DNA of 28,859 nt from Candidatus Omnitrophota bacterium (GTDB lineage Bacteria > Omnitrophota > Gorgyraeia > Duberdicusellales > 4484-171). This document shows positions 26,175 through 27,707 of the stretch, piece after piece. The stretch's first letter is position 1, and every line of letters begins with the position of its first letter. The translations under genes and the position numbers were made by a program. The stretch spans positions 1-28,859 of the forward strand of contig JAQTUC010000002.1 of the NCBI GenBank assembly GCA_028710385.1. Direction: 5' to 3'. The notes beneath the pieces are model-generated. The model worked only from the letters and a program-made list of their open reading frames with translations. It had not been told where the DNA came from and did not search any database.

Positions 26175-26837
26175 CTATTTATTGATAAGGTGCGCAAAAT
26201 ACCCTGCGCCAAGGCCGTTATCAATATTTACGCAGACACTCCCTGGAGCGCAGCTGTTAAGCATGCCCAGAAGCGCGCTAAGGCCCTTAAAAGATGAGCC
26301 GTAGCCTACGCTTGTTGGAACGCCTATTATAGGCGAGGGGCAGATTCCTGAAATTATGCTTAATAAAGCTGCCTCCATCCCTGCAACAACAATTACAACT
26401 TTTGCGTTTTTTATTTTTTCCTTAAACGGTTCTATCCTGTGGACTCCGGCAACTCCTATATCGTAAACTCTTTCCACATTGTTGCCGAGGATCTCAAGAA
26501 ATACCGCTGCTTCTTCAGCAACGGGAATATCAGAAGTGCCTGCTGTAATCACAAGGCAATTTCCGCGCGTCTCATTAATTCTTTTTCCCAGAAAAGCCAA
26601 TTCTGCATCTTTATAATATTTAAGTTTACGGTGCGACTTTCTTAAAATTTCAAATTGCCGGCGTTTAAGGCGCGATATAAAAATTGTTGTTGTGTGTTTT
26701 TTAAATTCGCTGATTATGCAATTTAGCTGCGGTATGGTTTTTCCGGGCGCATAAATTATTTCGGGCAGGCCTTTTCGCTTTTCTCTTGCGATATCAAGCT
26801 TAACAAATTCAAGATCAACAAATCCTTTGTGTCTCAT
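26175..26837 (-). CDS. larB: LarB (AIR-carboxylase-like) nickel-pincer cofactor biosynthesis protein
   Basis: GLPEIIYAPGKT, TAGTSDIPVAEEA, DIGVAGVHR, VAGMEAAL, VPTSVGYG, VNIDNGLGAG. Confidence 0.94.
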   Translation of the reverse strand: MRHKGFVDLEFVKLDIAREKRKGLPEIIYAPGKTIPQLNCIISEFKKHTTTIFISRLKRRQFEILRKSHRKLKYYKDAELAFLGKRINETRGNCLVITAGTSDIPVAEEAAVFLEILGNNVERVYDIGVAGVHRIEPFKEKIKNAKVVIVVAGMEAALLSIISGICPSPIIGVPTSVGYGSSFKGLSALLGMLNSCAPGSVCVNIDNGLGAGYFAHLINK

Positions 26838-27145
26838 TAAAGAACGAGGTCTTTAAGAATTGCCCAGAGCAGGACAACTATTACGAGAGAAGAAATTATA
26901 TAAAAATCATTGAAATACAGGAATTCGCGGAAAGCGTCCGGAAAGCGGTGTTTTTTATCGGGCAAATTGTATTTATTTTTTATGGTTTCTTTTACCTTGA
27001 AAATTTCTTCCCTTCTAAAACGAAGAAACTCTCCGGCGACCTTAAAGCTTGGAAGAAGATTTGTGTTTGCCAAATCTATGACTTCCTGTTCTGTTAAGCC
27101 CAGAATTTGAGACACCTCTCTTGTGGTTAATAATTTCTCTTTCAT
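26837..27145 (-). CDS. Excisionase/BldC-like HTH protein with a C-terminal TM helix
   Basis: LLTTREVSQILGL...LPSFKVAGEFLRFRREEI; C-terminal FYIISSLVIVVLLWAIL. Confidence 0.8.
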   Translation of the reverse strand: MKEKLLTTREVSQILGLTEQEVIDLANTNLLPSFKVAGEFLRFRREEIFKVKETIKNKYNLPDKKHRFPDAFREFLYFNDFYIISSLVIVVLLWAILKDLVL

Positions 27146-27215
27146 TTTTGTTTAAAATTATCCGGTGTCGGTTGTCAGCTGCAAGCAACTTAAAGCTGAT
27201 GTTGAAGGTTATTTT

Positions 27216-27707
27216 TTAACGGTTTTGCGTAATCCAGTCCTCAACGCTTCTGCGGTCAAAAAATAAATTTTCTCCTTCTTTGGTAACGGGAATTTTACCC
27301 TTACCAACCCACTCCATTATTTTTCCTTCTTCTACGGCGAGATAATCCGAAAGCTCAGACAAGGACAATCTTCCCTGAGGCATTTTGCATTTTCCGTTAA
27401 ATATAGCGCCTTCTTCCATTACCAGTTTAGGCACTTCTATGTCTCCATTAACCTGAGCCGTTGAAGTTAAGGTGACCATATGCGTTGCCGTAATCTTTCC
27501 GGCTATGCGCCCGCCTAAAATCATATCTTCGCCGATAATATCCGCGTTTACTATGGCGTTTTCACCAACCATAAGGTTTCCTTTTGTGGTTAACGTGCCT
27601 TCAAATTTTCCGTTTATGCGCAAGTTAACCGGCTCGGAAAAAACCAGGCTTCCCTGCATGGTTGCATTTATATCCAGTATTTTCTCGTCTTCTTTTTTTC
27701 TTAACAT
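27216..27707 (-). CDS. Bactofilin fused to a C-terminal excisionase/BldC-like HTH
   Basis: INGKFEGTL...LMVGENAIVNADI...GGRIAGKITA...QVNGDI...LVMEEGAIFNGKC, then LSLSELSDYLAV...WVGKGKIP...LFFDRRSVEDWI. Confidence 0.85.
   Translation of the reverse strand: MLRKKEDEKILDINATMQGSLVFSEPVNLRINGKFEGTLTTKGNLMVGENAIVNADIIGEDMILGGRIAGKITATHMVTLTSTAQVNGDIEVPKLVMEEGAIFNGKCKMPQGRLSLSELSDYLAVEEGKIMEWVGKGKIPVTKEGENLFFDRRSVEDWITQNR

Follow-up and report, generated by a model that had tools for sequence, protein, structure and literature searches.

Bactofilin–winged-helix fusion proteins of Omnitrophota are encoded beside a predicted tail-anchored winged-helix protein

Results

Two adjacent genes of a 28,859-nucleotide stretch of DNA from a Candidatus Omnitrophota bacterium (contig JAQTUC010000002.1 of assembly GCA_028710385.1, positions 1 to 28,859; this whole stretch is called the window below) form a pair that is conserved across the phylum. 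The upstream gene, referred to as A, encodes a bactofilin beta-helix fused to an acidic winged helix-turn-helix (HTH) domain, and the downstream gene, referred to as B, encodes a protein with a homologous winged HTH followed by a C-terminal membrane helix. A full-length match to A was found in 273 of 301 genomes sampled across Omnitrophota, and B lies immediately 3' of A on the same strand in 40/40 loci, an association far beyond chance. We tentatively favour the view, which we rate a little short of probable, that the pair builds a membrane-associated bactofilin scaffold with winged helices as docking modules.

Domain composition and predicted fold of A

Pfam assigned Bactofilin to residues 11–108 of A (E-value 8.3e-25, 87.3 bits with a cut-off of 27.9) and HTH_17 to residues 114–163 (E-value 2.4e-7, 31.3 bits with a cut-off of 27). 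The AlphaFold2 model (predicted local distance difference test, pLDDT, 89.1) is composed of a beta-helix at residues 10–108 that a linker of some six residues joins to a winged helix, formed by helices 116–123 and 127–136, strands 142–144 and 147–151, and a last helix at 152–162. In Foldseek comparisons the beta-helix matched TtBac (6rib, target TM-score, TMt, 0.78) and BacA (2n3d, TMt 0.76), and the same two bactofilins were recovered with the core by profile search of the PDB (E-values of 4.6e-12 for BacA and 1.6e-10 for TtBac). Matches to the winged helix comprised the DNA-binding domain of a terminase small subunit, Pukovnik Xis (4j2n), RdfS (8dgl), BldC (6ama), gpNu1, RacA (5i44) and CbpM.

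The profile search aligned F103 of A with TtBac F105 and BacA F130, and this position is hydrophobic in all displayed rows of the A family. BacA F130R is cited as a non-polymerising control (PMC12448750), and likewise the arginine mutant of TtBac F105 (title of 6ria). The N-terminus of A starts with MLRKK and continues into an acidic run in this genome, and reads MAFKKK, MARRK or MLKKK in relatives and MKFFSQKK in a divergent clade treated in the Discussion. The bactofilin membrane-targeting sequence (MTS) has the consensus MFSKKKK, and in BacA a membrane client can stand in for the MTS (PMC12448750). The resemblance is suggestive and makes the N-terminus of A a candidate membrane-targeting peptide; A may polymerise and reside at the membrane.

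B couples a BldC-like winged helix to a membrane helix

HTH_17 was also assigned to B, at residues 5–51 (33 bits with a cut-off of 27). Its model (pLDDT 78.9) consists of a winged helix at residues 8–58, a linker of low confidence and two helices at 68–78 and 80–101, the last of them with a pLDDT of 93, and Kyte-Doolittle hydropathy in 19-residue segments reaches its maximum of 2.41 at residue 83. Because only 0–5 residues follow the membrane helix throughout the family, B is predicted to be tail-anchored. The best Foldseek match of the winged helix is BldC (6ama/6amk, TMt 0.81–0.85, root-mean-square deviation (rmsd) 1.0–1.2 Å, 27–30% identity), with further matches to RacA (5i44), RdfS, Xis and the DNA-binding domain of pSK1 Par (8csh), and the PDB profile search gave Pukovnik Xis Gp37 (8e-5) and BldC (5e-3). 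Within the B family, conservation is highest in an aromatic motif ahead of the membrane helix, modelled as helix 68–78, in which Y82 is invariant and F75, N79 and F81 are each kept in at least 90% of members.

A and B are linked across Omnitrophota

A database search returned 610 homologues of A, of which the best 120 are all 147–168 amino acids long with both domains, and those with a name among these 120 all belong to Candidatus Omnitrophota or Omnitrophica. A occurs in 229/247 high-quality Omnitrophota genomes and in 187/207 genera. The A family is compact, since a library clustered at 50% identity contains about 21 representatives that span the fused profile in full. Protein-atlas neighbours that combine Bactofilin with HTH_17 are all from Omnitrophota, and an A-type fusion from outside the phylum was found neither among the named homologues nor among the protein-atlas clusters nor in the divergent clade, all of which are Omnitrophota or Omnitrophica.

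Homologues of B number 135, every named one from Omnitrophota, and HTH_17 is matched by 47/47 aligned members. The 40 loci in which B follows A represent at least 20 families, with 35 loci from the class of this genome and five from other Omnitrophota classes, and the gap between the two genes ranges from −58 to 174 nucleotides. No single-chain A+B fusion was present among the best 150 of the representatives at 50% identity, and a search for longer proteins with the aromatic motif and membrane helix of B returned none.

The order of genes around the pair in the window is tsaD, mgtC, A, B, larB, larC, the neighbours being housekeeping genes, and a tRNA-Met gene (24968–25043) and the integrase of an island (23898–24824) are located beyond larC. 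Both mgtC and tsaD stand beside the pair in 33/35 loci of the same class and in 0/5 loci of other classes, in which acpS, surE or greA adjoin it, and larB is downstream of B in 17/40 loci. As functional partners mgtC, tsaD and larB were therefore rejected, the first two being confined to the class and larB being present in fewer than half of the loci.

An earlier interpretation made from the letters and translated open reading frames (ORFs) of the window, called here the sequence-only reading, had proposed a bactofilin fused to a Xis/BldC-like HTH, paired with a gene for a similar HTH with a C-terminal transmembrane segment in a housekeeping context outside the island. All of these features are borne out, by the two Pfam domains and the Foldseek matches to Xis, BldC and RacA for A, by HTH_17, the hydropathy peak and helix 80–101 for B, and by tsaD, mgtC, larB and larC with the integrase beyond them. 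It had also named a sporadic fusion, or a C-terminal domain other than an HTH, as outcomes that would speak against it; the domain-architecture check found the fusion in the great majority of sampled genomes, the Pfam score and winged-helix model identify the domain of A as an HTH, and the proposed co-occurrence with the HTH-transmembrane gene holds at all 40 loci.

The winged helix of A is acidic and lacks nearly all DNA-contact residues of BldC

BldC contacts DNA with Lys26, Thr27, Thr29, Arg30, Trp31 and Lys33 of its recognition helix and with His46, Arg47 and Arg48 of its wing, R30A and H46E abolish its DNA binding, and RacA uses the equivalent arginine (PMC5859096). These positions were transferred to A and B with constant offsets (+102 and −6, respectively) by comparing the published secondary-structure boundaries with the models, and residue statistics were taken from 50 members of A and 47 members of B. 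The HTH of A has a net charge of −3 in this genome and of −9 to 0 in the family (mean −3.9), being acidic in 47/50. The position of BldC Arg30 is occupied by Glu or Asp in 44/50 (E132 here), the equivalents of Thr27, Thr29 and Lys33 are variable or hydrophobic, and the wing Arg position is variable as well, with Lys or Arg in 20/50, leaving the Trp as the only one of the nine DNA-contact positions that A retains. By contrast, six stand-alone Omnitrophota HTH_17 proteins used as a control carry a net charge of +1 to +8 in the same columns, and 5/6 have Arg or Lys in the Arg30 column. The acidic charge and the missing BldC contacts, when set against these basic proteins, therefore make it unlikely, as far as residues can tell, that the A winged helix is a canonical DNA reader.

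For B, the mean net charge of the HTH is +1.7 and that of the recognition helix −1.6. Asp or Glu occupies the Arg30 position in 36/47, R42 (BldC R48) is invariant and K20 (BldC K26) is found in 32/47, only two of the nine BldC contacts being retained. DNA reading by B is thus ambiguous from its residues.

Homologous winged helices and a possible docking geometry

BLASTP gave no match between A and B. Profile alignment by hhalign showed their winged helices to be homologous over 56 columns (probability 97%, E-value 1e-10), and this homology makes an HTH–HTH contact plausible. In BldC, head-to-tail contact is formed by Phe21, Val23 and Trp31 on one face and by Leu11, Ile40, Thr42, Leu43 and Gly44 on the other (PMC5859096). 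B has a hydrophobic residue or Gly at all of the mapped positions (L15, I/V17 and L25 in the head; L5, Y34, V36, G/A37 and G38 in the tail). A retains the head face only (L123, V125 and W133), its tail positions being polar or acidic. Given that A keeps the head face and B the tail face, the head of A could sit on the tail of B.

The two-protein tether put forward in the sequence-only reading survives in part. The conserved pairing and the homologous HTHs make contact between A and B plausible, and A, with its MTS-like N-terminus, need not depend on B for reaching the membrane. That the filament binds DNA, the remaining part of that proposal, runs counter to the acidic A HTH, to the Glu or Asp at the Arg30 position and to the missing conserved wing arginine.

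Features and genomic setting of the pair

The coordinates of the pair, of its parts and of adjoining genes are collected in Table 1. The genome is a 1.46-Mb assembly that is 85% complete, with A as its single bactofilin. The stop codon of B and the start codon of larB share one base (TAATG), larB being translationally coupled to B in this genome, and a simple scan of the minus strand from mgtC through A and B to larB revealed no promoter-like or terminator-like site above chance. The spacer between mgtC and A measures 185 nucleotides and contains two long, near-perfect hairpins (27731–27888) with the stems CCCCACACCCAGC and GCGCAGACAACTTATG; since this spacer is only 5–45 nucleotides long in most relatives, it has the appearance of an insertion.

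Table 1. Positions of genes A and B, their predicted parts and adjoining genes in the window
Feature	Position	Strand	Basis or remark
Gene A, bactofilin–winged-HTH fusion	27216..27707	-	ORF, 163 amino acids; Pfam Bactofilin and HTH_17 above cut-offs
A, N-terminal basic peptide MLRKKEDE, possible membrane-targeting sequence	27683..27707	-	Resemblance only
A, bactofilin beta-helix, residues 9-108	27384..27682	-	Foldseek and PDB profile matches
A, acidic winged HTH, residues 114-163	27219..27368	-	AlphaFold2 model, Foldseek, charge
Gene B, tail-anchored winged-HTH membrane protein	26837..27145	-	ORF, 102 amino acids; Pfam HTH_17
B, BldC-like winged HTH, residues 5-58	26972..27133	-	Foldseek and PDB profile
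B, juxtamembrane aromatic motif, residues 70-82	26900..26938	-	Family conservation; consensus DFFYFNDFY
B, C-terminal transmembrane helix, residues 83-101	26843..26899	-	Hydropathy and model
mgtC, upstream neighbour, class-level synteny only	27893..28336	-	Pfam MgtC 4.9e-43
larB, context, outside the module	26175..26837	-	NCBIfam LarB 1.1e-77
larC, fused (LarC1 and LarC2 parts)	25090..26166		Directly downstream of larB

Discussion

Literature searches combining bactofilin with Omnitrophota found no paper, those with Omnitrophica only an unrelated evolutionary review, and those on bactofilins with helix-turn-helix or domain architecture no description of such a fusion, in agreement with the sequence-only reading, which knew of no described example. 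The pair thus appears to be undescribed. A resembles canonical bactofilins (BacA 2n3d; TtBac 6ria/6rib; PF04519) in its beta-helix core of similar size, its hydrophobic residue at the end of the core and its basic N-terminal peptide, but differs from them in that a linker of some six residues leads to a folded winged HTH in place of the usual disordered C-terminal tail, and in having a dedicated gene for a tail-anchored partner next to it. In a metagenomic protein (P0273, 253 amino acids), an Omnitrophota-like bactofilin core is joined to a PilZ domain at the C-terminus (Pfam PilZ 6.7e-10), which is another folded domain in place of the bactofilin tail and hints at control by cyclic diguanosine monophosphate.

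Two known systems link an HTH protein to a cytoskeletal element. In Bacillus subtilis, the HTH protein BacR (YhbD, DUF4004) is genetically linked to the bactofilins BacE and BacF, binds both and is drawn to the membrane, its DNA binding being reduced (PMC13649987). The genetic linkage of an HTH protein to a bactofilin is common to both cases, but BacR, which is soluble, belongs to another family and has about 210 amino acids, is encoded upstream and acts in trans, whereas of the two HTHs in Omnitrophota one is part of the bactofilin itself and the other is anchored in the membrane; PF13171 (DUF4004) was absent among the Pfam matches of A and B at E-values up to 0.1. The second case is RodZ, a bitopic membrane protein whose cytoplasmic HTH binds the cytoskeletal filament MreB and not DNA (PMC3599482). 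The HTH of RodZ is of the XRE type, and RodZ also has a periplasmic domain and a partner that is actin-like, whereas B has a winged helix of the MerR/BldC type, 0–5 residues past its membrane helix and a bactofilin neighbour, and the likeness is an analogy only.

Two further comparisons concern DNA-binding proteins. BldC of Streptomyces (6ama/6amk; PMC5859096) is the best match of the B HTH and, like it, a minimal winged helix that has no coiled coil for dimerisation. However, BldC is a soluble regulator of 68 amino acids that reads DNA with Arg30 and oligomerises head-to-tail on direct repeats, whereas B has Asp or Glu at that position and a membrane anchor, and A is without nearly all of the DNA contacts. 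Two other proteins (P0323, 417 amino acids; P0334, 479 amino acids) are each built of seven HTH_17 winged helices in tandem, of the ordinary basic kind, and look like covalently joined forms of the arrays that BldC builds head-to-tail on DNA. In Myxococcus xanthus, the BacNOP-PadC-ParB system places a bactofilin scaffold in a chromosome context (PMC5703909). There, as with RacA-DivIVA of B. subtilis (5i44), a scaffold is tied to chromosome positioning by DNA-binding adaptors, and RacA has the same winged-helix fold. These systems, however, use separate adaptor proteins together with a ParB or RacA whose DNA-reading residues are intact, and A has conserved no such residues. A coiled-coil region such as the C-terminal, DivIVA-binding one of RacA was seen in neither the A model nor the B model, so the likeness to RacA is one of fold only.

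We propose that A and B may constitute a two-gene cytoskeletal module of Omnitrophota. A, the sole bactofilin of the genome, would most likely polymerise through the ends of its beta-helix as BacA and TtBac do, and its polymer would lie at the inner face of the membrane, aided by the short basic N-terminal peptide. The C-terminal winged helix of A would be a degenerate, acidic domain of the Xis/BldC type that serves for protein docking and probably does not read DNA. B would be tail-anchored and expose to the cytoplasm a homologous, mildly basic winged helix that has kept the hydrophobic positions of BldC-type head-to-tail contact. Most likely, the winged helix of A would dock on that of B, or both would dock on a common partner, and docking of this kind would tie the polymer to a fixed anchor in the membrane, as the HTH of RodZ holds MreB and as Bacillus bactofilins hold BacR. 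B may also contact DNA through its conserved wing arginine.

Several observations weigh against this proposal. Contact between A and B is something that we infer. Mirror-tree and partial Mantel analysis of the 40 A–B pairs gave similar correlations for all domain pairs (0.66–0.71) and thus says nothing on contact, and the net charges of the paired HTHs showed no co-variation (r = −0.07). The HTH of A may block one of the polymerisation ends, and its acidic charge and lost BldC contacts may be compatible with DNA binding of a non-canonical kind. In addition, the two genes are strongly, not absolutely, coupled. In five high-quality genomes where A is unmatched, the bactofilin part of the A profile has no match either, and four of the five retain a full-length, well-conserved B, set between mgtC and larB in one genome (tsaD-mgtC-B-larB-larC), between tsaD and polA in two, and among other neighbours in the fourth. 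B therefore has a role without A and is not merely its anchor. Conversely, the divergent A clade from an Omnitrophica WOR_2 genome (187–188 amino acids, with the MKFFSQKK start) sits in a different gene cluster without an adjacent B, and no B was found in that partial genome.

In three A-less loci, L042 (genome G033), L043 (G087) and L044 (G047), A has been cleanly lost with B at the same site. These loci represent natural knock-outs that can be compared with sister genomes containing A, such as G035 in the same family. Stand-alone matches to the A HTH in A-less genomes were considered as remnants of A and rejected, being ordinary basic HTH_17 proteins. The cluster of the divergent clade is conserved between L052 (290–5567) and L053 (6–4317) and consists, in order, of an unknown gene, a ParA/MinD-like ATPase that carries a CBM48/AMPK glycogen-binding module, a pair of unknown genes, the gene for the bactofilin-HTH protein and a MscS-like membrane protein; a gene for a Volactin-type actin lies upstream on L052, the longer, metagenomic contig, and L053, the genome contig, ends before that position. 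The genes gathered there may have a cytoskeletal or positioning role.

Other arrangements of the same parts have to be weighed against the docking scaffold. It is not very likely, yet deserves consideration, that B forms membrane-tethered, BldC-like head-to-tail arrays on DNA, which the acidic HTH of A caps, clusters or competes with in a partner switch like that of BacR, the bactofilin thereby deciding if the HTH protein occupies DNA. BldC is the closest structural match of B by rmsd and identity, the invariant R42 and the mostly conserved Lys at the K26 position would serve such arrays, the hydrophobic interface positions of BldC are kept, B functions without A, and BacE and BacF lower the DNA binding of BacR (PMC13649987). 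However, the predominance of Asp or Glu at the Arg30 position, the negative recognition helix and the low overall HTH charge of B do not fit a DNA reader well, and the space upstream of A and B is usually too small for a promoter or operator of their own, so autoregulation of the BacR kind is unlikely. A combined arrangement, in which arrays of B held on DNA by the wing are gathered by the degenerate winged helix of the A polymer to tether chromosome, membrane and cytoskeleton as a nucleoid anchor beside ParABS, we consider unlikely. The presence of ParB or MreB was rejected as a functional clue, ParB being found in 99/100 high-quality genomes and MreB in 10/10 (five with and five without A).

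If A itself were a DNA-binding filament, its HTH–HTH contact with B would tie a DNA-coated polymer to the membrane as a RacA-like chromosome anchor. The Xis/BldC/RacA fold of both proteins, the appearance of RacA and of the plasmid partition protein pSK1 Par (8csh) among the structural matches, the scaffolding of ParABS by bactofilins in Myxococcus (PMC5703909) and the tight linkage of A and B speak for this, and the near-universal ParB would allow a scaffold role alongside ParABS. We nevertheless regard it as improbable, because the A HTH is acidic, carries Glu in place of Arg30 and has neither equivalents of Thr27, Thr29 and Lys33 nor a conserved wing Arg, because A already has an MTS-like N-terminus, and because some lineages have retained B and not A. 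That A and B are independent, their adjacency being an inherited gene order without physical coupling, appears very improbable. Each gene does occur without the other, and the tsaD-mgtC synteny is also class-wide, gene order here being generally stable; yet the adjacency of A and B survives across classes in which all other neighbours change, the gaps between them are short or overlapping, and the homologous domains of the two proteins carry the same unusual acidic substitution.

Bactofilins are widespread scaffolds for which few clients, or modes of holding them, are known. Omnitrophota have hard-wired a folded adaptor domain onto their sole bactofilin and, next to it, have retained a matching membrane protein; taken with the 2026 result on BacR and BacE/F, this suggests that bactofilins are recurrently linked to MerR-like winged helices. 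With 163 and 102 amino acids, A and B make a compact two-protein system for studying how a filament docks its client. The pair is also a clear example, from a phylum without a cultured model organism, of how a fold for binding DNA has apparently been turned to the binding of protein.

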